DNA of 64,000 bases from a virus. The translations under genes and the position numbers were made by a program. Positions 16,242 to 63,387 of this stretch are shown here, piece after piece. Location of the stretch: positions 1-64,000 of the IMG/VR virus record IMGVR_UViG_3300043446_004155, one strand, 5' to 3'. The notes below the pieces were generated by a model. That model had not been told where the DNA came from and searched no databases. It worked only from the letters and a program-made list of their open reading frames with translations. Position 1 is the stretch's first letter; every line of letters begins with the position of its first letter.

Positions 16242-16390
16242 TGAAAAAGAAAAAGTTAGCCAAACAAGCACTTAAGCACCCGGAGTTGTTCACTCCCGCT
16301 GAATTAGCTTATTTTGATCGCTGGCTTTGGCAACGAAAACAACACAAGAAAGCTGCTAAGATTGAGTTAAGTAAAAAGGAAAATAGTTAA
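16241..16390 (+). CDS. 49-aa basic protein absent from the track
   Basis: MKKKKLAKQALKHPELFTPAELAYFDRWLW...; TAATG overlaps at both ends. Confidence 0.65.
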   Translation: MKKKKLAKQALKHPELFTPAELAYFDRWLWQRKQHKKAAKIELSKKENS

Positions 16391-18639
16391 TGTCCGTCGA
16401 CGCAAAGGCCAGGCTGCGGGAAATCGTCGAATCGTACCTGGAAAAAGATTCTGGTACTGTTGTCGACACTGGTGTCGTTGCGTCGCACCTGGCACAGATG
16501 AAACTCTTTGGCATCCGCCAAGGGGTTGAGTTTTTTCCTGGCCAAGACAACTTCGGTGCACAGCGCAAGGACTTTGTTGACCGAGTTGTTAAATACAACC
16601 AAATTGATGTACGCCTGGATTCCATCTGGGATTACTTCCTGTGCGATGGTAAGGGCATTTTCTACATCCGTCCCACAAAACAAAACTATCGCGTTTATTA
16701 CTTCCGCGAACACGAGTATCGCAGTTATTACAACGTAGACGGTGAACTGGAAGAGGTGGTGATCATCTACAGCTACAAGGTCCGCAAGGCTGGTAGTTCG
16801 TACGATGGTATCAACATTGTGAACGCCACAGGCACATCAATCACTGGTGAGCCGGGCTCCAAGCGTTACATTCGTCTTTCGATCAAAGCAAATGAAATTG
16901 AAGAAACTCATTCAGACGCAGAATTAAATTTTGATATGCCCTCTGGCATGGCGCCAGGGAAAAATAAAACATTTAAAAACTCACTTGGTTTTATCCCTTG
17001 CGTTGAGATCTTCAACAATCCCAAAGGTTTTGCAAAAGAAGGGGTTGGTGAGTTCGATGCATTAGCCAACCACATCGTGACGCATGATGAGTTGGTGCGC
17101 ACCATGCGGAAGAACGTTCAGTTCTTTGGCAATCCAACGCTGTTGTCGTCTCGCCCTAAGACCGACCTGATCGAGTCCGGTGGCGAGTCCGTGGTTCAGC
17201 GCCCCTCAATTGCAGCAAACTCTGGTTTTGCTGGTGCCAGCCCCTTAAGCCGTTCAATGTTTAAGGCGGATCCTGTCTCCCGTGGTGTTGATGGTCAGAT
17301 CCGTGTGCCACGCGTCATTGCAAACCTGGAGCCTAACGACCGCGTCGGTTACATTGTTCCAGATGCAATCACTGGAGATCAAAACAATTTTGCCCGTCAG
17401 TACCGAGAAGAAATTCGTACCGCCCTTGGTGGCGTTGATGAACTTTCCATTTCGGCGGGTGTTACTGCAACTGAATACAAATCACTGTTTGGTCGTGTTT
17501 CTGCTACATCCAAGAAAAAAGCAAATGCTATTTACACTTATGGCATCTGCCGTTGTCTTGAGCTAATTATTTATCAAGAAGAACAACTATTCCGCATGTC
17601 ATTGGCTGCGGCACTTGGTATTGAACGCCCCGTTGAACCAGCCCCTACTGCTCCCCAAGAAGAAAAAGACGCTTATAAACAAGCCCAGGAACAATTTGAA
17701 CAACAAGTTCAAGATGCAATTAATGCATGTGTTCAGGCCCAGGATGTTCCTCCTGGTGTAACGGGCCTCATCCCAGATGGTGATCTCACTATGCTGTGGA
17801 GGTGGACAGGACCTGTTTACGAAGATTCGACGCAAGACGTACTTAACAATTCAATTGTGGTACGAAATCTGCAAGAATTAGGTGTTGATAGCATTGAAGC
17901 ACTGAAATACCTCTTTCCGTCTAAGACGGATGAGGAACGGGCCGAGATGCTATCTGGGTTCCCGTTCAGGATGGTGAGTGAACTACAGGGCGCTTTTGCT
18001 CAATTCTCTCGCCTGGTGGGTGGCCTGATGCAGACCCCTCACCCGCAGTCACCGAACCTTCCGATGGCTGCCGATCCCAGGTTGGATTTAACTCCATATC
18101 TGTATCGAACTCTAGAGGCTTTACAAAAGGAGATGAGTTATGCAGGACGCTACCGTCCAATCGATCCCACAGACGAGCCCGACTCCGGCAGTAGCGCCGA
18201 GCAGTTACGTGACTCCGTCTTACCAGCCGAGCCAAGCCCCGGTCTCGTACCAAGCAGCCCCGGCGAATTACCAGGTGGCAGCACCTCAGGCGGCCCCGGT
18301 TTACCAACCCTCAGCCCCTACTCAGTACGCCCCCCAATCCCAACCGGCGGAAGCCCAGAGCAATCCGTGGGAATCGGCGTTCAACAAGGTGGTGAACCTG
18401 CTGAGCGCACCAGTTCAATCCCCATTCCAGGGTCAACCATCAGCTCCGACGACGAGCTACGCCCCGGCCAACTACGGTTCGGTGAGCAGCCCAGCTACGC
18501 AACAATCGGTTCCGCAGACCTGGTCAACCAACCAGGCTTACTCGCCCAGCTCTTCCCCAACTTACTCGGAGAGCCTGAGTCAGGAAAGCCAGCAGGTCCT
18601 CGCCGCGTTCGGAAGCGAAGCTCCCGCAATTCTAAATAA
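16390..18639 (+). CDS. Portal protein with long disordered C-terminal extension
   Basis: Position between TerL and scaffold/MCP; portal-like motifs LCDGKGIFY and NSLGFIPCVEIFNNP. Confidence 0.75.
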   Translation: MSVDAKARLREIVESYLEKDSGTVVDTGVVASHLAQMKLFGIRQGVEFFPGQDNFGAQRKDFVDRVVKYNQIDVRLDSIWDYFLCDGKGIFYIRPTKQNYRVYYFREHEYRSYYNVDGELEEVVIIYSYKVRKAGSSYDGINIVNATGTSITGEPGSKRYIRLSIKANEIEETHSDAELNFDMPSGMAPGKNKTFKNSLGFIPCVEIFNNPKGFAKEGVGEFDALANHIVTHDELVRTMRKNVQFFGNPTLLSSRPKTDLIESGGESVVQRPSIAANSGFAGASPLSRSMFKADPVSRGVDGQIRVPRVIANLEPNDRVGYIVPDAITGDQNNFARQYREEIRTALGGVDELSISAGVTATEYKSLFGRVSATSKKKANAIYTYGICRCLELIIYQEEQLFRMSLAAALGIERPVEPAPTAPQEEKDAYKQAQEQFEQQVQDAINACVQAQDVPPGVTGLIPDGDLTMLWRWTGPVYEDSTQDVLNNSIVVRNLQELGVDSIEALKYLFPSKTDEERAEMLSGFPFRMVSELQGAFAQFSRLVGGLMQTPHPQSPNLPMAADPRLDLTPYLYRTLEALQKEMSYAGRYRPIDPTDEPDSGSSAEQLRDSVLPAEPSPGLVPSSPGELPGGSTSGGPGLPTLSPYSVRPPIPTGGSPEQSVGIGVQQGGEPAERTSSIPIPGSTISSDDELRPGQLRFGEQPSYATIGSADLVNQPGLLAQLFPNLLGEPESGKPAGPRRVRKRSSRNSK

Positions 18640-19066
18640 TTACGCCCTTCAGCTGGAAGGTCTTCTGGACAGTGCTGTTGCCTGGGGCCAGGAAATGACC
18701 GAGACTCTCCAGGGTTATGCAGAATTTGCCACCGAGTCTCACACTGAGAACCTGGCTTACAACGAGATCCTGACCAACCCCGATGTTCTGAGCGATTACA
18801 CGCTCCGTTTCTTCGGTCCCGAAGGTCCGTATCCTGTGCACGAAGGCGAAGCAGATCTGGAAGCTTATGGCTATCCAACTGAGCAAGTTGATCCCGCTCT
18901 CTATGGCGAGTTCCCTGCTCCTCCTGCCGCAGCTGCTCCTCAGCAACCTGCCAACTTCTGGGGCACCTTCAACGAAATGATGGCGCGTGATCCCCAGAAT
19001 GCATGGCGTGTTCTGAACCAGGCCCAGCCTAACGTTGTGTCCAACAAACTCTTCGTGATGGAGTGA
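18140..19066 (+). CDS. Capsid scaffolding-like protein
   Basis: AAGGAG RBS 7 nt upstream; Pro/Gln/Ala-rich N-terminus, acidic helical middle; precedes MCP. Confidence 0.7.
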   Translation: MQDATVQSIPQTSPTPAVAPSSYVTPSYQPSQAPVSYQAAPANYQVAAPQAAPVYQPSAPTQYAPQSQPAEAQSNPWESAFNKVVNLLSAPVQSPFQGQPSAPTTSYAPANYGSVSSPATQQSVPQTWSTNQAYSPSSSPTYSESLSQESQQVLAAFGSEAPAILNNYALQLEGLLDSAVAWGQEMTETLQGYAEFATESHTENLAYNEILTNPDVLSDYTLRFFGPEGPYPVHEGEADLEAYGYPTEQVDPALYGEFPAPPAAAAPQQPANFWGTFNEMMARDPQNAWRVLNQAQPNVVSNKLFVME

Positions 19067-19688: not shown

Positions 19689-19784
19689 TCTAAGCTAAGT
19701 ACCTGCTAAAATTTGTGTTAGATAAGACACACGTGTCTTTATCTTTCACCCGATAAAAACACTGACACTGGAGGATAAACCAAG

Positions 19785-19796
19785 GTGTTTATTGAT
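19785..19796 (+). CDS. Major capsid protein exon 1 (MFID)
   Basis: GGAGGA RBS at 19770-19775; GTG TTT ATT GAT joins in frame to AAC GAC TTT CCA at 20621. Confidence 0.85.
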
Positions 19797-19798
19797 AG

Positions 19799-20377
19799 CT
19801 AGTTCAGATCCTGGTAGGTATGACCTTTCAAGATTTGGTAAATAGCTCCGTGGTTACAGTCAAACTTTTCAGCAATCTTTCGATACGAGAGTCCTGCTTC
19901 TTTTAAAGCTTTGATTTGAATCACGTCTTCCGAAGAAAACTTTCTCAAAGTCTTTTTCGGTTTCCCTTTACTGGCAAAGCCATTGTTTTTATAACAACCG
20001 GTTTCCCAGGCTCTTGTTAAGTTTTCTTGTTTGGTAACGATCTCAAGATTGTCAAGTCGATTATTCCTCTTGTCATTATCTTTGTGATCAACTTGAAGGG
20101 AAAAGTTACTGGTTCCATGAGAACGCAGATCTAATCCCAAAAAAGCTACAGCCATCAAGACGTGAAGATGAAAACGTTTTCTCTTCCCATCAACAAGAAC
20201 TGAAATACGGTCATAAACACTGGTTGAGCGAATAGGGATCTCTTGAAAATATTCTTGATTATCGGGATCAAGTTGTTTTTCAAAAGCTTTCCCCTCTTCC
20301 GTTAAGTAAAGATTACCAAATCCAGGAACAAGTTTTGGATTCATGTTGTTCATAAACAAGTTTCCAAAGCGTAGCAT
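19799..20377 (-). CDS. Intron-encoded HNH homing endonuclease, antisense to the intron (true start probably 20353)
   Basis: LHVLMAVAFL...QVDHKDNDKRNNRLDNLEIVTKQEN motif plus C-terminal HTH. Confidence 0.88.
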   Translation of the reverse strand: MLRFGNLFMNNMNPKLVPGFGNLYLTEEGKAFEKQLDPDNQEYFQEIPIRSTSVYDRISVLVDGKRKRFHLHVLMAVAFLGLDLRSHGTSNFSLQVDHKDNDKRNNRLDNLEIVTKQENLTRAWETGCYKNNGFASKGKPKKTLRKFSSEDVIQIKALKEAGLSYRKIAEKFDCNHGAIYQILKGHTYQDLN

Positions 20378-20396
20378 GCCTCAACTGAACGCTCAA
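20368..20396 (-). promoter_or_regulatory. Candidate sigma70-type promoter for the antisense HNH gene
   Basis: Minus strand TTGAGC-17 nt-TACGCT with TGn extension. Confidence 0.5.
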
Positions 20397-20620
20397 CGTT
20401 GTCACCCCACCGAGCAATCGATGGGTGCAAACCGGATGAATTCAGGGAAGCCCTAACGTTAAGACGAGGGTAATCCTGAGCCAAGCCAATCAAGCGTGAT
20501 TGGAAGGTGCAGAGACTACTGGGTGTAACACGACCTTGTTACGTAATACCAGATTTAGCGTCCGGCATCCCACAGGGATGAAGAGATAGTCCACCCCTCT
20601 AAGAAACTAGAGACCAGGAG

Positions 20621-21772
20621 AACGACTTTCCAAAAATTCTTGGTGCGGAACTTTACCGTCCCCACCCTGCTTACATTGCTGAAATGGCAGTGGAGCCCGT
20701 GGTCGTCCACGACTTCACCCGTCAGCCTGGTCAAACCGTTCAGTTAGACCGCTACAAGTTCTGGGGTACCCCTGGCACCAAGGATAGCCGGGAGCGTATC
20801 GCTGACCAGACTATTGGTACCGCCAACAGCCGCAACATCACCAAAGAGAAGGTGCTTGTTGTGCTGAAAGAGTACACTGGCCCTGCTGACCCGGGTGATC
20901 CGACCCAGCCTTCGACCTTCAAGATCGCTCGTGAAACCCTGATTACCGCCCAGCGCCTGCTGCTGGACACCGGTAACCTCAACATGTTCCACCAGTCGAT
21001 CGGCAGCCTGACTCTGCTCGACGACTATCGCCGTTGGCGTGACCGCGTGTTCATCGATGAACTCGCTAAAGCCGAAGCCAATGGTGAAGCTTCCAGCACC
21101 CAAGGTGGTTACTACTTCCCTGGTGGCAAGAACAAAGCTTCTAACGGTTCTATTGCTTACACTGCTGCTGAATACGCCGCTCAGGTGCAGCAGTTCCAGG
21201 TGCGTACCGACCTGCTGACCGTTGTTAAGGACCTGCGTAAGCGCAACGTTCCTACCTTCGCTGATGGTCTGTATCGTTGCATCTGCGATCCCACCTTCAT
21301 GATGCACCTGCGTCGTGATCCTGACTTCCGTGAGATCGCTCGTTACAGCGGCAACCCTGGCCAAGGCATGTACATGGGCAACCCCATGATGCCTAACAAC
21401 GCCAGCTTCTACATGGGTCCCCAAGCTGGTCAGGGTTACTTCCTGGCTGGTGAGCCTGTGATGCCGACTGGTGTTCAGTTTGAAGGTGTGAAGTTCTTCG
21501 AGTCGACCAACTTCCCGACCAAGACTGTTAGCGCAAGCTTCACCGACACCCCTTCGTACAGCAACCAAGAAGTTGCCCAAGGTTACTTCTTCGGTCCTCA
21601 GTCCATCGGTGTTGGTATCGGCGGTCCTAACGCTCAGGTGCTCATCAACAACAACGATGACTTCAGCCGTTTCATCATCCTGATCTGGCAACTGTACGCT
21701 GGCTTCGAGATCCTGAACAAGGACTTCGTAACCACCGCCTTCAGTTTTGTTTCTGACGACGGCACCATCTGA
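20621..21772 (+). CDS. Major capsid protein exon 2
   Basis: The open frame extends 21 codons upstream of the track ATG at 20684 (NDFPKILGAELYRPHPAYIAE); DFTRQPGQTVQL capsid-like motif; strong codon bias. Confidence 0.88.
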   Translation, partial: NDFPKILGAELYRPHPAYIAEMAVEPVVVHDFTRQPGQTVQLDRYKFWGTPGTKDSRERIADQTIGTANSRNITKEKVLVVLKEYTGPADPGDPTQPSTFKIARETLITAQRLLLDTGNLNMFHQSIGSLTLLDDYRRWRDRVFIDELAKAEANGEASSTQGGYYFPGGKNKASNGSIAYTAAEYAAQVQQFQVRTDLLTVVKDLRKRNVPTFADGLYRCICDPTFMMHLRRDPDFREIARYSGNPGQGMYMGNPMMPNNASFYMGPQAGQGYFLAGEPVMPTGVQFEGVKFFESTNFPTKTVSASFTDTPSYSNQEVAQGYFFGPQSIGVGIGGPNAQVLINNNDDFSRFIILIWQLYAGFEILNKDFVTTAFSFVSDDGTI

Positions 21773-60377: not shown

Positions 60378-60452
60378 CGGGGATTAGCTCAGTTTGGCCA
60401 GAGCGCTGCGTTTGGGACGCAGATGCCGCAGGTTCAAATCCTGCATCTCCGA
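60378..60452 (+). tRNA. trnP: tRNA-Pro (TGG), CCA not encoded
   Basis: Acceptor CGGGGAT/ATCTCCG; anticodon arm CTGCG-TTTGGGA-CGCAG; T arm GCAGG-TTCAAAT-CCTGC. Confidence 0.93.
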
Positions 60453-60505: not shown

Positions 60506-60832
60506 ATGCCCTGGAGAGATTCCAAGGAACGCATCAACAAGAATCGACAGAAGCTTCTGGAGTACAAGAAGACTCTGCAATGCGAGCAATGTGGGTTGAA
60601 CGATCATCGTGTCCTTGAGTTTCACCACATCAAGGATAAGGATCAAAACGTTTCACGGATGGTGAGCACTGGGTTAAGCTGGCAAAGAATTGAAAATGAA
60701 ATTAAAAAATGTATTCCATTGTGTTGTAACTGTCACAGGATAGAACACTTTAGACTGATACAAAAGGAAAAAACAAATGCTGTCAACCGATACACGCCTG
60801 AAGGTTCAGTTCATTTGCGATTGTATTGGTAA
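60506..60832 (+). CDS. HNH endonuclease
   Basis: CEQCG...VLEFHH...EIKKCIPLCCNCHRIEH. Confidence 0.85.
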   Translation: MPWRDSKERINKNRQKLLEYKKTLQCEQCGLNDHRVLEFHHIKDKDQNVSRMVSTGLSWQRIENEIKKCIPLCCNCHRIEHFRLIQKEKTNAVNRYTPEGSVHLRLYW

Positions 60833-61094
60833 GGGCGCACCAGTTGAATTAAAGGATATGGCATGGGTGCAAAAACTTGCCACCCGTAATCCAACGGTGG
60901 ATACCTGGCTTCGGCAAGCAAGACGCAAAGCTATACAGGCCGATCAACCCAGCAATGACCTGGATGATTTCTGTAATGCCTTGGACCTTGGTGAACCAGA
61001 CCCCAGTGATCACCTAGTGGGACCACAAGATCCAGTGACATTAGCTGAGTGGTTTACCAGCAGACAGAAATGGTTTCGTGGACAAGCTGATTAA
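60777..61094 (+). CDS. Conserved cyanophage/cyanobacterial hypothetical protein
   Basis: MLST..RL...IC..I..G..V.L.DM.W.QKLA...LDDF.N.LDLGEPDPS. Confidence 0.7.
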   Translation: MLSTDTRLKVQFICDCIGKGAPVELKDMAWVQKLATRNPTVDTWLRQARRKAIQADQPSNDLDDFCNALDLGEPDPSDHLVGPQDPVTLAEWFTSRQKWFRGQAD

Positions 61095-61101
61095 ATTTTT
61101 G

Positions 61102-63387
61102 TCAACGGAAGAATAGTCCACCTGCTTCTGAGATACCCAACTCTGGAATGCTTAACGTACCAAATGGAGTTGGAAATTTCCATTTACTTCCCCGGCGACG
61201 AGCAGCTTCTGCCCGTGCCAACTGTGATTTAGCTGCTTGTTCGTCTGCTTTCTTATTTAATTTAGTTGAACCGCCTAGTTGCGAAACAACAGCAAGAGGA
61301 TTAGCAATACGAAGACCACCAGCAACTGCTGGAAGAACAGCAGCAGTTGTTGCAGGCGCTAAGCGTTGAGCAAGTCCTGCTCCTGCACCAATGACTGGAG
61401 CGGCCGCTGTTCCAATTGCATATTCGGTAGCAACTTGTTGAGCCGCTTTGCGAAGATTGCCGGTTTCAACAGCTTGCCTGAAGGCGGGATCAAATAATGG
61501 AACAGAACCTGCTAAATCAGTTGTAGTATTAAAACCAGTCCCTATAGCTTGAGAAATTTTTGGTAGAGCTTTGTTGTATACTTCTGCTTGTTTTGCTTTA
61601 GCAGCAATATCAAGTAAAAGATCAGAAGAATTAACACCAGCGCTTTCTAAAACGCGCACAGTGTCACTATCCATCTGAGGACGTTGAATTGTTCCTTGAG
61701 GATTTGCGCCTAAATTTGCGGGGTTAAGATACGTTCTACCGCCTTCTCTAAAATCCATTGGCGCGGCAGACGTAAAACCTCCCATGCCTACACCACGCGC
61801 TTTATCAATTGCAGATCTAATAGAATTATCCGCATAAGTTAAGGCGTCTTCAAAAAAGTCAGGATCACTAGGAGGTGTCCAGCTTCCAAGAAGTGAATTT
61901 GTTGCTCTTGTTACAGGAGGTCTTTGGGGAGTTGAGGGACGCTCTCCCAACGTGTCTTCTAAAATTTGGAAGTTTTTAGGATTAGCTTTAGCTAATGCTT
62001 CATAAACGCGTCGATCTCGCTGGAACTCAGGGGAGTCAATATCTAAACCCTGTTCTGCATAATTTTGACGAACAAAATTTATATAACCAGGGTCTGTTTC
62101 ACCCATTAGCTTTATCAAAGCATTCTTTTTAACATCCCATTCACCGCTTAATGCTCTTGCTTTAATTTGCTCAGGAGAGTTATAAGTAATTTGTTCTTGG
62201 GTTATTTTTTCTTTTAATGCAGGGACTGCGATTTCAGCAGCTTTATTGAGTTCTTGTTGCCACAAATTAGTGTCAACTGTAGGCACTAAAGGAGCATTCA
62301 TCAACGAAAGAGGATTGCCATATGGAATCCCACCAGTGTTGTATCCACCTGCAATTTGTTGTGTAATTACCCGTGGCGGCCCATATTCATTATTCATGAA
62401 TTGGTTAGCAGCCTCTGAGCGTATTGTTCTGCCTTGCCAGTTATCTTTATCAGACCACTCAACACTGCCTCCCCTCTTAAAAGCGTCCCAATTTGCCTGG
62501 ACCTGATCGTAAAATTCTTGCCCTCTTTGGGCCATTGTATTAAATTCTTCTTGACTGATTGGAGGACTCAAGAAAGAAGCAACATTATTTGCGTCCCTAA
62601 ACAAAGAACTTCCTTGTGCTGCACCACGTTGTTGCACAAGAGTACGTCCACTCATTCGTGCATTTCGCTTTGCATCTTCAATCCCTGCTTCATATGCAAG
62701 CGAAGGATCAGATGTAAATACCGGCGCTTGTTGAGTTAAATTTTCTAAGCCAATATTTTGAGCTGCCAGCGGTGTAGCACCAACATTTTCTGCAATCGTA
62801 ATAAGTTCCTCGCCACGCAACGTATTTCCAACGTTGGCAAAGTCATGCATTGCATCGTGTAGTTTTAGCTCATTACCATAAGCCCTTCCTGTTGCCGGAT
62901 TAATTACTGGCCCTGGATCTTGCCCCTCAAAATATTGATTAAGAAAACGTTTAGCTTTTTCTTGTACTGATTCAGTATCACGAATATTTACAGGTGGTTG
63001 TGTAAAATCAAACTCTCTGCCAAAAGGTTGATTTGAATTACTAGAAAATAAACCAGCTTCGTTTGGATTAACAGGAACTACTTTAGGATACAGCTCTTCC
63101 CAATCCGTAACAGGAAGACTACTTGCCGGACCAGAGTGAGGAACAATCTGTACGGCAGCGCCTGGTTTGTTAAAACGAATACCCTGACTTGTATCAACTG
63201 TTTTATCCCAAATTATATCGGATACATTACGAGTTGGGTATTGAGGTTGCGCAAGTCTTACTTGCTCTGTTTCGGCTGCTCGGTTATACAAACTTTGCAG
63301 ATCAGGAGAGAGAGGTTCGCCTGTTTTAGTTGAACGAAGAATTGCAGCGTTTAATTTTACGCGTTCTGCAGGAGTTAATTCCATCAA
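61102..63387 (-). CDS. Large Ala/Gln/Pro-rich protein with hydrophobic C-terminus and an HDxxHx11E motif
   Basis: 761-aa ORF; LHDAMHDFANVGNTLRGEE. Confidence 0.6.
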   Translation of the reverse strand: MMELTPAERVKLNAAILRSTKTGEPLSPDLQSLYNRAAETEQVRLAQPQYPTRNVSDIIWDKTVDTSQGIRFNKPGAAVQIVPHSGPASSLPVTDWEELYPKVVPVNPNEAGLFSSNSNQPFGREFDFTQPPVNIRDTESVQEKAKRFLNQYFEGQDPGPVINPATGRAYGNELKLHDAMHDFANVGNTLRGEELITIAENVGATPLAAQNIGLENLTQQAPVFTSDPSLAYEAGIEDAKRNARMSGRTLVQQRGAAQGSSLFRDANNVASFLSPPISQEEFNTMAQRGQEFYDQVQANWDAFKRGGSVEWSDKDNWQGRTIRSEAANQFMNNEYGPPRVITQQIAGGYNTGGIPYGNPLSLMNAPLVPTVDTNLWQQELNKAAEIAVPALKEKITQEQITYNSPEQIKARALSGEWDVKKNALIKLMGETDPGYINFVRQNYAEQGLDIDSPEFQRDRRVYEALAKANPKNFQILEDTLGERPSTPQRPPVTRATNSLLGSWTPPSDPDFFEDALTYADNSIRSAIDKARGVGMGGFTSAAPMDFREGGRTYLNPANLGANPQGTIQRPQMDSDTVRVLESAGVNSSDLLLDIAAKAKQAEVYNKALPKISQAIGTGFNTTTDLAGSVPLFDPAFRQAVETGNLRKAAQQVATEYAIGTAAAPVIGAGAGLAQRLAPATTAAVLPAVAGGLRIANPLAVVSQLGGSTKLNKKADEQAAKSQLARAEAARRRGSKWKFPTPFGTLSIPELGISEAGGLFFR

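Follow-up and report, generated by a model that had tools for sequence, protein, structure and literature searches.

How can a phage produce its major capsid protein when the reading frame of the gene closes after only five codons? This question is raised by positions 19,785 to 21,772 of the window, the whole 64,000-nt stretch of DNA analysed here (positions 1 to 64,000 of the IMG/VR virus record IMGVR_UViG_3300043446_004155). An earlier note on this DNA had read the locus as a capsid gene split by a group I intron with an HNH gene in reverse orientation in its P1 loop. The analysis strongly favors this view: in the major capsid gene of this S-EIV1-like freshwater cyanophage, the first four codons are very probably followed by a mobile group I intron that carries an antisense HNH gene and would splice and home.

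A group I intron splits the capsid gene after its fourth codon

The Shine-Dalgarno sequence of the capsid gene (GGAGG, 19770..19774, plus strand) lies 10 nt 5′ of the GTG start and is conserved with the intronless phage S-EIVl. Exon 1 (19785..19796, plus strand) is GTG TTT ATT GAT (M-F-I-D), and the intronless alleles set its last base at U19796. The intron reads AGC TAG directly after GAT, which places an in-frame stop at 19800-02. The capsid frame picks up again at 20621 with AAC GAC TTT CCA, in frame with the ORF ending at 21772, so that exon 2 (20621..21772, plus strand) comprises 383 codons and a stop. The RBS, the four codons, the 824-nt insert and the in-frame continuation had all been described in the earlier note and match the sequence. 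In a profile search the exon 2 product was identified as a phrog_1357 major head protein (residues 31-373, E 2.4e-16), and a phrog_20475 virion structural protein gene lies upstream of the capsid gene. Pfam gave no matches for the capsid protein and its neighbours.

The insert was identified as a group I intron of 824 nt (19797..20620, plus strand; last base G20620) by Rfam model RF00028 and by intronless alleles. The RF00028 match covered 20372-20613 on the plus strand and the full model (1-253), with 90.2 bits against a gathering cut-off of 50 bits (E 9e-22), and was the only one in the 82.6-kb genome. The cultured relative S-EIVl, a Synechococcus phage, has an uninterrupted GTG-start ORF (L001:1586-2737) that reads MFIDTDFPKILGAELYRPHPAYICEMAVE. 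Positions 19703-19796 correspond to its leader, RBS and first 12 nt, and its remaining sequence aligns from 20621 onward. Likewise, GTG-TTY-ATT-GAT runs directly into AAC/ACC-GAY-TTY in 60/60 intronless IMG/VR loci, with a junction of GAT-AACGAY or a near variant. Because S-EIVl and these 60 loci are uninterrupted, the splice sites can be assigned to U19796 and G20620, giving an 824-nt intron whose removal restores the reading frame of the same homologues. Two of the checks that had been proposed for an intron after codon 4, a covariance-model search and an alignment to intronless capsid homologues, therefore came out in its favor. Moreover, the splice-site U and G are present in all copies, the equivalent of G20620 being kept in L067 despite a changed preceding base, and exon 1, the RBS and the leader are conserved among the intron-bearing copies.

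The capsid N-terminus was then considered. The 21 codons upstream of ATG 20684 are under clear coding constraint and this N-terminus is coding: among 82 loci the three codon positions have 4/2/21 variable columns, and the 58 DNA versions of the stretch encode 6 peptides. ATG 20684 itself is kept in all relatives, the intronless ones too. No in-frame ATG, GTG or TTG was found in the window between the upstream stop at 20600-02 and ATG 20684. This result, together with the comparative evidence, agrees with the earlier proposal that the full-length capsid protein requires splicing. The spliced product, with GTG TTT ATT GAT joined to AAC GAC, would be a 387-aa capsid protein (4 + 383 codons) with the N-terminus MFIDNDFPK, and unspliced RNA would yield only MFIDS before the stop.

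Fold of the intron

The 5′ strand of P1 (UGAU of exon 1 followed by AGC, 19793..19799, plus strand) pairs with the guide GUUGUCA (20398-20404). The predicted splice-site wobble, U19796-G20401, lies inside this 7-bp helix (19793-99/20398-404), in which the exon side amounts to only 4 bp. All seven pairs, the U-G pair that had been claimed at the 5′ splice site included, are standard in 16/16 copies. They are also invariant, so that there is no covariation either way and P1 rests on sequence. The P1 extension, in which GUUCAG (19802..19807, plus strand) pairs with CUGAAC (20385-20390), closes the loop holding the HNH gene; it is 100% paired in the 16 copies, and in L016 one G-C pair has become A-U by compensatory change. 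The CGUU adjoining the guide (20397..20400, plus strand) could form P10 with AACG of exon 2 (20621-24), a pairing judged by complementarity, and neither side varies among the copies. The guide, both strands of the extension and the CGUU are present exactly where the earlier note had placed them, and its suggestion of a P10 with AACG can be retained on the same basis.

The ribozyme core (20405..20620, plus strand) was delimited by Rfam alignment and by pairing counts over the 16 copies. On the plus strand, P3 (20432-38/20559-65), P4-P5 (20442-79), P6 (20480-508), P7 (20514-18/20587-91) and P8 (20567-79) were placed by the Rfam alignment, and P2 (20406-25) and P9 (20597-612) have three and two pairs with compensatory changes, respectively. 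An extra P7.1-like hairpin (20519..20552, plus strand), which appears as a 38-nt insertion when aligned to the Rfam consensus, is predicted between P7 and P3′ and shows compensatory changes at three pairs, in L067. In the alignment of 16 copies the proposed structure has 69 pairs, with 99.4% of cells paired. Nine pairs are compensatory (P1 extension 1, P2 3, P7.1 3, P9 2), versus a shuffle mean of 2.1; this number was reached by 0/500 shuffles, and slid controls gave 0-2. P3, P4, P6, P7 and P8 are invariant or changed on one side only. Since these helices and P1 hardly vary, they are supported by the family model and not by covariation. A single-sequence MFE prediction for the ORF-less intron was not informative on its own (z = -1.76): P3-P6, P8 and P9 came out, and P1 and P7 were missed.

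An antisense HNH gene at the tip of P1

The P1 loop contains an HNH homing-endonuclease gene on the minus strand (19799..20341, 181 aa + TAG). The protein matched Pfam HNH_3 with 39.8 bits (cut-off 24.8) and phrog_59 with 1e-27, and its only PDB match was I-HmuI (1U3E, E 7.5e-6), covering the nuclease and C-terminal parts. The motif DH-x-D-x3-NN-x4-N, with the catalytic His and Asn, is conserved in 14 HNH copies. A C-terminal helix-turn-helix was scored at 23.7 bits by HTH_38, under the cut-off of 27, and the I-HmuI alignment extends through this part. The ORF is intact in 14/14 copies, with a median dN/dS of 0.097 and dS up to 1.5, and the gene is under purifying selection. A tblastn search of 50,697 phage records returned only two weak matches (31-33% identity); a close cultured relative of the HNH protein was therefore not found among them. 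The HNH stop and the unspliced capsid-frame stop overlap in one CTAG palindrome.

The minus-strand ORF spans 19799-20377. While the assignment to the HNH family stands, a start at ATG 20377 was rejected: in L044 and L028 a stop comes right before FGKLF, and L012 lacks a start codon at that point. Since some copies do not keep the first 12 codons open, the conserved ATG 20341 is most likely the start.

Two relatives, L003 and L023, have 276-nt ORF-less introns at the same site, in which P1 and its extension are retained and a short hairpin replaces the HNH segment. This layout shows the HNH gene to be placed at the tip of the predicted P1 and, with the HNH_3 match, bears out the earlier claim of an antisense HNH gene in that loop. 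The ORF-less introns also retain the final codons of the HNH gene (YQDLN), along with the -35 region.

A candidate HNH promoter (20368..20396, minus strand) consists of a -35 element TTGAGC (20396-91), a 17-nt spacer and TGn followed by a -10 element TACGCT (20373-68). A generic promoter/terminator scan upstream of the HNH gene gave no site, and it was replaced by a comparison of 79 loci. Among the 39 distinct versions at these loci, TAnnnT lies exactly 17 nt from the -35 in 37, and TG occupies -15/-14 in 36 of these 37. The three inner letters of the -10 element take 14 forms, and the hexamer here agrees with the consensus at only 3/6 letters. The element is promoter-like, a candidate for a conserved extended -10 promoter within the intron.

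Distribution and mobility

Among capsid-gene relatives, 13 full copies have an insert of 821-827 nt at the same site, and so do 71 of 80 loci reached via the HNH protein. Some contigs belong to both sets, which were drawn from many metagenomes and show 78-98% identity. The HNH gene is present on at least 108 IMG/VR contigs; all 80 examined loci lie at this capsid-gene intron site, and none is free-standing. In the capsid-locus set, 60 of 82 loci are intronless.

On the capsid tree, at least 14 changes (gains or losses) of intron presence are required, and well-supported branches force 11-12 of these. Sister loci can differ, as L007 has the intron and L008 does not, and the two ORF-less copies are placed apart, among intron-bearing and intronless loci. 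The presence of the intron is very patchy, as expected for a mobile element.

Splicing and proposed mechanism

In public data, a contig of RNA run X1 joins 19796 to 20621, omitting exactly 824 nt, and the same joint was found in X23, a run of unstated kind. An unspliced 908-nt contig (run X3, record 17, 19733-20640) spans both junctions. All public runs were used as contigs, and RNA libraries can also hold DNA. Because intronless phages are the majority in such samples (60/82 loci), the joined form could come from intronless genomes. The depth of the intron is lower than that of exon 2, in runs of RNA and of unstated kind alike, and since a mix of intronless genomes is possible, this difference cannot separate out splicing. 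We infer that this intron is spliced in vivo.

Transcription of the plus strand would yield a late mRNA carrying the intron, in which exon-1 UGAU would pair with the guide as P1 and set the U-G wobble at the splice site. Attack by guanosine after U19796 would free exon 1, which would then attack after G20620 while AACG of exon 2 is held by CGUU in P10. The HNH gene, on the other strand at the P1 tip, would be transcribed from its own intron-internal extended -10 promoter near the guide. In co-infection the enzyme would presumably act on capsid alleles that lack the intron, nicking or cutting them, and repair would copy the intron into them (homing). For these last steps, we infer both use of the HNH promoter and nuclease activity of its product.

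The same layout might serve as a regulatory gate and not only as a parasite, timing capsid synthesis or hindering co-infecting intronless phages. With the RBS and GUG placed 8-27 nt ahead of the 5′ splice site, a ribosome on unspliced RNA would cover P1 and halt at its UAG, so that splicing would have to outrun initiation. Moreover, the HNH promoter abuts the guide and would fire across P1 into exon 1 and over the capsid RBS, giving a transcript antisense to the capsid leader. A role of the intron-encoded endonuclease of PhiPA3 in phage competition is described in a published report (PMC11620839). We regard a gate of this kind as rather unlikely.

Alternative explanations

Because core pairing is retained by compensatory changes across copies with HNH dS up to 1.5, it is very improbable that the insert is a dead, non-splicing relic, with exon 1 unused and the capsid protein made from ATG 20684 without its first 25 residues. 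The conservation of ATG 20684, even in intronless relatives, is consistent with such a relic, and so is the indirect nature of the case for splicing, on which the lower intron depth in RNA and unstated-kind runs cannot decide. However, the window offers no start codon within the 21 constrained codons upstream of this ATG; exon 1, the RBS and the leader are conserved where the intron is present, and no copy has lost the splice-site U or G. An assembly artefact or chimera, by which an unrelated intron/HNH segment entered the capsid gene of this contig, could be suspected of a metagenome-derived virus record such as the window. The same insert nevertheless recurs at the same base in the 13 full copies and the 71 HNH loci from many metagenomes, and public-run contigs such as that of X3 cross both junctions, which makes an artefact extremely unlikely.

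On the other hand, the locus could combine two selfish elements, an ORF-less intron having later been invaded by a free-standing, promoter-bearing HNH cassette whose nuclease may by now serve phage-versus-phage competition, as in the PhiPA3 case, either in place of classic intron homing or in addition to it. ORF-less 276-nt introns do occur at this site. With a promoter-like element of its own and an opposite orientation, the HNH gene is independent of the intron RNA, and its dS of up to 1.5 is far above the core divergence of about 9%. Yet all 80 HNH loci examined are in one intron at one site, the YQDLN codons and -35 region left in the ORF-less introns fit ORF loss as well as gain, and the ORF-less copies stand apart on the capsid tree. 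We consider a union of two elements unlikely, and favor a single mobile group I intron that carries its HNH gene in P1.

Significance of the locus

With this mobile intron, gene calling can be corrected for a widespread freshwater cyanophage lineage, in which the capsid gene is missed or truncated in annotation, even in the GenBank record of S-EIVl, and in which the intron-bearing first exon is only 12 nt long. Close relatives form a natural three-state series (intronless, intron with HNH gene, ORF-less intron), which suits study of the mobile-intron life cycle in an essential, very highly expressed gene.

Comparison with known systems

The earlier note had seen a likeness to the cyanobacterial tRNA-Leu(UAA) intron. 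The two share the P4-P6-P7 core, including the 16-mer AATCCTGAGCCAAGCC, and beyond this core the likeness does not hold. The 38 cyanobacterial loci align only over 20439-20517 (79/223 core positions), with 73-78% identity. The best cyanobacterial trnL locus ranks 29th of 76 genome loci, and other phage or bacterial introns match better. ARAGORN found no tRNA at the cyanobacterial loci with default settings; with the intron option it reported trnL(UAA), twice called Ser. Membership in the trnL(UAA)-type (IC3) introns was rejected, given the core-only alignment, the rank of 29th or lower and the extra hairpin between P7 and P3′, in which the present intron differs from them.

The HNH protein resembles I-HmuI of the SPO1/SP82 DNA polymerase intron, both being encoded in a phage group I intron. 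The I-HmuI gene lies on the sense strand inside a DNA polymerase gene, and the enzyme nicks a single strand. The present gene is antisense with its own candidate promoter, and its product is a predicted endonuclease. Among cyanophages, the I-PfoP3I intron of Pf-WMP3 belongs to group IA2 and carries a nicking HNH enzyme (PMC3428280), and the abstract of that report mentions no antisense ORF. The introns of Pf-WMP3 and S-PM2 are group I introns in protein-coding cyanophage genes like the present one, but their host genes are DNA polymerase and psbA rather than the capsid gene. In nuclear rDNA group I introns, e.g. at position L2066, a published account places antisense homing-endonuclease genes in a peripheral loop (PMC9548176). 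The present gene likewise lies opposite the ribozyme strand in such a loop. By that account the L2066-type introns are eukaryotic, lie in rRNA genes and carry genes for His-Cys box enzymes whose expression involves spliceosomal introns; their sequences bear no relation to that of the present intron. The present locus provides a clear example, from a bacterial virus, of an antisense endonuclease gene in a P1 loop, separately promoted if the candidate promoter is used.

The earlier note had called a capsid host gene, a 12-nt first exon and an inverted endonuclease gene in L1 an unusual combination. This remark is weakened, since a capsid intron with a backward endonuclease gene is not unprecedented: in mycobacteriophage LittleE the capsid gene holds an intron of 819 bp that is spliced and bears an endonuclease ORF on its bottom strand (Pope et al. 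2013, PMC3706429). There, splicing was demonstrated by RT-PCR and N-terminal sequencing, the intron type was left open as 'most likely a group I', and a capsid intron in lactococcal phage Tuc2009 is cited. Compared by that description, both phages have a split major capsid gene, an intron of about 820 bp, an exon-1-final U, an intron-final G and intronless relatives; other relatives of LittleE carry an ORF-less form of the intron in a different gene. LittleE is an actinophage whose insertion is reported inside the gene near the processing site, whereas in the present cyanophage the intron lies four codons from the start.

Structure of the capsid locus and position of the splice sites

The window belongs to an IMG/VR virus record of 82.6 kb that is rated complete and has direct terminal repeats; its nearest cultured relative was Synechococcus phage S-EIVl (KJ410740; 77% DNA identity over the head-gene region). 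The plus-strand gene block spans about 4 kb to 31 kb. An earlier note, made from the sequence alone, had described a ribosome binding site, four capsid codons, an insert with a minus-strand ORF and a resumed capsid frame, and this reading agreed with the DNA. The ribosome binding site GGAGG lies at 19770-74 and exon 1 (GTG TTT ATT GAT) at 19785-96, followed by AGC TAG; a 192-codon minus-strand ORF occupies 19799-20377, and the capsid frame resumes in exon 2 with AAC GAC TTT from 20621 to the stop at 21770-72. The intron-split capsid gene was thus confirmed as an observation. Elsewhere in the window, at 16390-19066, a 749-aa virion structural/portal-like ORF (phrog_20475) overlaps the next ORF, Q/P/S-rich and 308 aa long, by 500 nt in another frame, and one tRNA gene was found on the plus strand at 60378-60452 (Rfam tRNA, 65.4 bits).

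A covariance-model search with the Rfam group I intron model gave a full-length match at 20372-20613 (+), the only one in the genome, which scored 90.2 bits (gathering score, 50), in line with the proposed group I intron. In S-EIVl, the capsid gene was an unbroken GTG-start ORF of 383 codons (L001:1586-2737), the product of which starts with MFIDTDFPKILGAELYRPHPAYICEMAVE. Positions 19703-19796 of the window aligned with the S-EIVl leader, ribosome binding site and first 12 coding bases, and the remainder aligned from 20621. Over this region (L001:1511-2737, equal to 60784-62010 of KJ410740), the GenBank record lacks an annotation for the 383-aa ORF and instead lists one ORF on the minus strand and a truncated one on the plus strand. 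Capsid loci from 80 IMG/VR relatives, the window and S-EIVl were then compared. Sixty of the 82 were intronless, reading from GTG-TTY-ATT-GAT (or a near variant) straight into AAC/ACC-GAY-TTY. The intron was present at exactly the same base in 20 loci, namely the window, 13 further full copies (824-827 nt) and six cut by contig ends, and two loci carried a 276-nt intron there. These direct exon 1 to exon 2 readings corroborated the placement after capsid codon 4. The junction contains one ambiguous base (A); the splice sites were set at U19796 and G20620, both kept in all intron copies, because only this choice satisfies the group I rules.

Fold of the intron and the HNH gene in the P1 loop

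The structure model comprised P1 and its extension, the helices P2 to P9, and a hairpin located between P7 and P3′, and pairs were counted on an alignment of 16 intron copies. Standard pairs occupied 99.4% of 1104 cells. Changes on both sides were found at nine pairs versus a shuffle mean of 2.1, a count reached in 0 of 500 shuffles, and a control with the 3′ partners slid gave 0-2 double-changed pairs. Compensatory changes fell in the P1 extension (G-C to A-U, L016), P2 (three pairs), the P7.1-like hairpin (three pairs, L067) and P9 (two pairs, L044/L028). P3, P4, P6, P7 and P8 were invariant or changed on one side only among the 16 copies; the family model, rather than covariation, is the basis for assigning them. 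At the base of P5 (20450, 20471), 12 copies have G-U and four (L016, L067, L044, L028) have A and C together, a replacement that keeps a wobble-like geometry and is not a standard pair. P1 pairs UGAU/AGC, the slash marking the splice site, with GUUGUCA (20398-404), placing U19796-G20401 at the splice site, and CGUU (20397-400) could form P10 with AACG of exon 2, both sides being invariant. The wobble and the possible P10 proposed earlier both fit the sequence.

The two 276-nt introns (L003, L023), which are ORF-less, shared with the window their first 24 nt and the whole sequence from UCAACUGAAC on, with only a short, perfectly paired hairpin between, indicating that roughly 550 extra bases of the window sit at the tip of P1. 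This segment is the minus-strand ORF, which matched Pfam HNH_3 (39.8 bits; cut-off 24.8) and phrog_59 (1e-27), so that the antisense HNH gene placed in the P1 loop by the earlier note held up. The sole match among solved structures was I-HmuI (1U3E; E 7.5e-6), the HNH enzyme that Bacillus phage SPO1 encodes within an intron, with the nuclease and C-terminal parts both covered, and nuclease activity is predicted in this phage. The ORF was open in 14 of 14 full copies and encoded 181 aa in every copy, counted from the conserved ATG 20341, with a dN/dS of 0.07-0.15 (median 0.097, 91 pairs; dS up to 1.5). A start at 20377 of the longer ORF was rejected: its first 12 codons showed no coding conservation and are interrupted by a stop in two copies. 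The palindrome CTAG at 19799-802 contains both the TAG of the HNH gene and the stop codon that ends the unspliced capsid frame. An IMG/VR search with the HNH protein found at least 108 contigs, and all 80 kept carried the HNH gene in this same capsid-gene intron at the same site. Together, the core interpretation of a capsid group I intron with an antisense HNH gene in its P1 loop was supported.

Candidate promoter of the HNH gene

Upstream of the HNH gene, 39 distinct versions from 79 loci were compared. The -35 element was TTGAGC in 36 and CTGAGC in three. Exactly 17 nt downstream, TAnnnT was present in 37 of 39, of which 36 also had TG at -15/-14, and the inner three letters of the -10 took 14 different forms. 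Judged from sequence, an extended -10 promoter would be conserved in this way, and coding sequence would not; the candidate had escaped a generic consensus scan for promoters. The HNH gene may be expressed from this predicted minus-strand promoter adjoining the guide sequence. Since it is the sole convincing minus-strand gene inside the plus-strand block, its transcript would be antisense to the capsid leader.

Predicted use of the 12-nt first exon, and RNA evidence

From the 3′ splice site to ATG 20684 lie 21 codons, in which the 82 loci vary at 4 columns in first, 2 in second and 21 in third codon positions; their 58 DNA versions encode only six peptides, indicating that these codons are translated. 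In the window, this stretch has no in-frame ATG, GTG or TTG, and TAA 20600-02 closes the capsid frame upstream of exon 2; the 21 codons can thus be translated only when splicing has joined them to exon 1 with its GTG. From unspliced RNA, the product would be MFIDS followed by a stop. These results strengthened the proposal that full-length capsid needs splicing, which is predicted for this phage.

Logan contigs from public runs holding close relatives were compared with the window. In RNA run X1, one contig connected 19796 directly with 20621, a skip of exactly 824 nt, and the same joint occurred in run X23 (kind unknown). Runs X6 and X1 contained loose ends with exon 1 ahead of 20621, and a 908-nt contig of X3 crossed the entire unspliced intron. 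The joints may derive from ordinary intronless mRNA or DNA, because the same habitats commonly hold genomes that lack the intron; they agree with splicing and are no proof of it.

Distribution of the intron and comparison with known introns

When intron presence was mapped on a maximum-likelihood exon 2 tree of 82 rows, at least 14 changes were required, 11-12 of them forced by strongly supported branches. Sisters had opposite states, as in L007 (intron) versus L008 (none) and L044 (intron) versus L038/L046 (none). This patchiness is consistent with phages that circulate together having repeatedly gained the intron by homing, or lost it.

Among phage records, the best nucleotide matches of the core were introns in a Vibrio phage terminase, a Ralstonia phage DNA polymerase and several jumbo phages. 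In Vibrio phage 1.187.O (MG592553; L083:1356-3630), the annotation divides the terminase gene into three pieces, which are separated by matches to the intron core of the window, and a GIY-YIG nuclease gene lies directly upstream; two group I introns probably interrupt the terminase gene. The DNA polymerase of Ralstonia phage BOESR1 (OQ389126; L084:60-2296) appears in the annotation as two ORFs separated by about 150 nt, with an 86%-identical match to the P4-P5 region at their junction and an HNH gene downstream. The 16-mer AATCCTGAGCCAAGCC was common to at least 120 genomes of many phyla. The best core match among 120 such loci (81% over 94 nt) was the Woesearchaeota MAG contig CAYIBB010000024.1 (L255), which is binned as a DPANN archaeon and could be a phage contig or hold a real intron there. 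The cyanobacterial loci checked were tRNA-Leu(UAA) genes with introns of 221-271 nt. They aligned over only 79 of 223 core positions, the best ranking 29 of 76, so the trnL(UAA) likeness seen by the earlier note stands as a shared common core and not as special kinship.

Cyanophage introns are also known in psbA. One in a DNA polymerase gene, I-PfoP3I, is described in PMC3428280, and PMC9548176 refers to antisense endonuclease genes in nuclear rDNA introns. Our literature search found no paper on introns in the S-EIV1 lineage. What is noteworthy here is the first exon of just 12 nt, the antisense HNH gene at the P1 tip with a candidate promoter adjoining the guide, and the co-existence of intronless, ORF-bearing and ORF-less alleles. 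The combination had been called unusual, but its main features are already published: by the account in PMC3706429, the capsid gene of mycobacteriophage LittleE is split by an 819-bp intron that was shown to be spliced and carries an endonuclease ORF on the bottom strand, a related ORF-less intron lies in the tail gene of another phage, and a capsid intron of lactococcal phage Tuc2009 is cited. As in LittleE, the capsid gene is split and the endonuclease ORF is antisense within the intron, and the present intron is a well-populated case of that arrangement.
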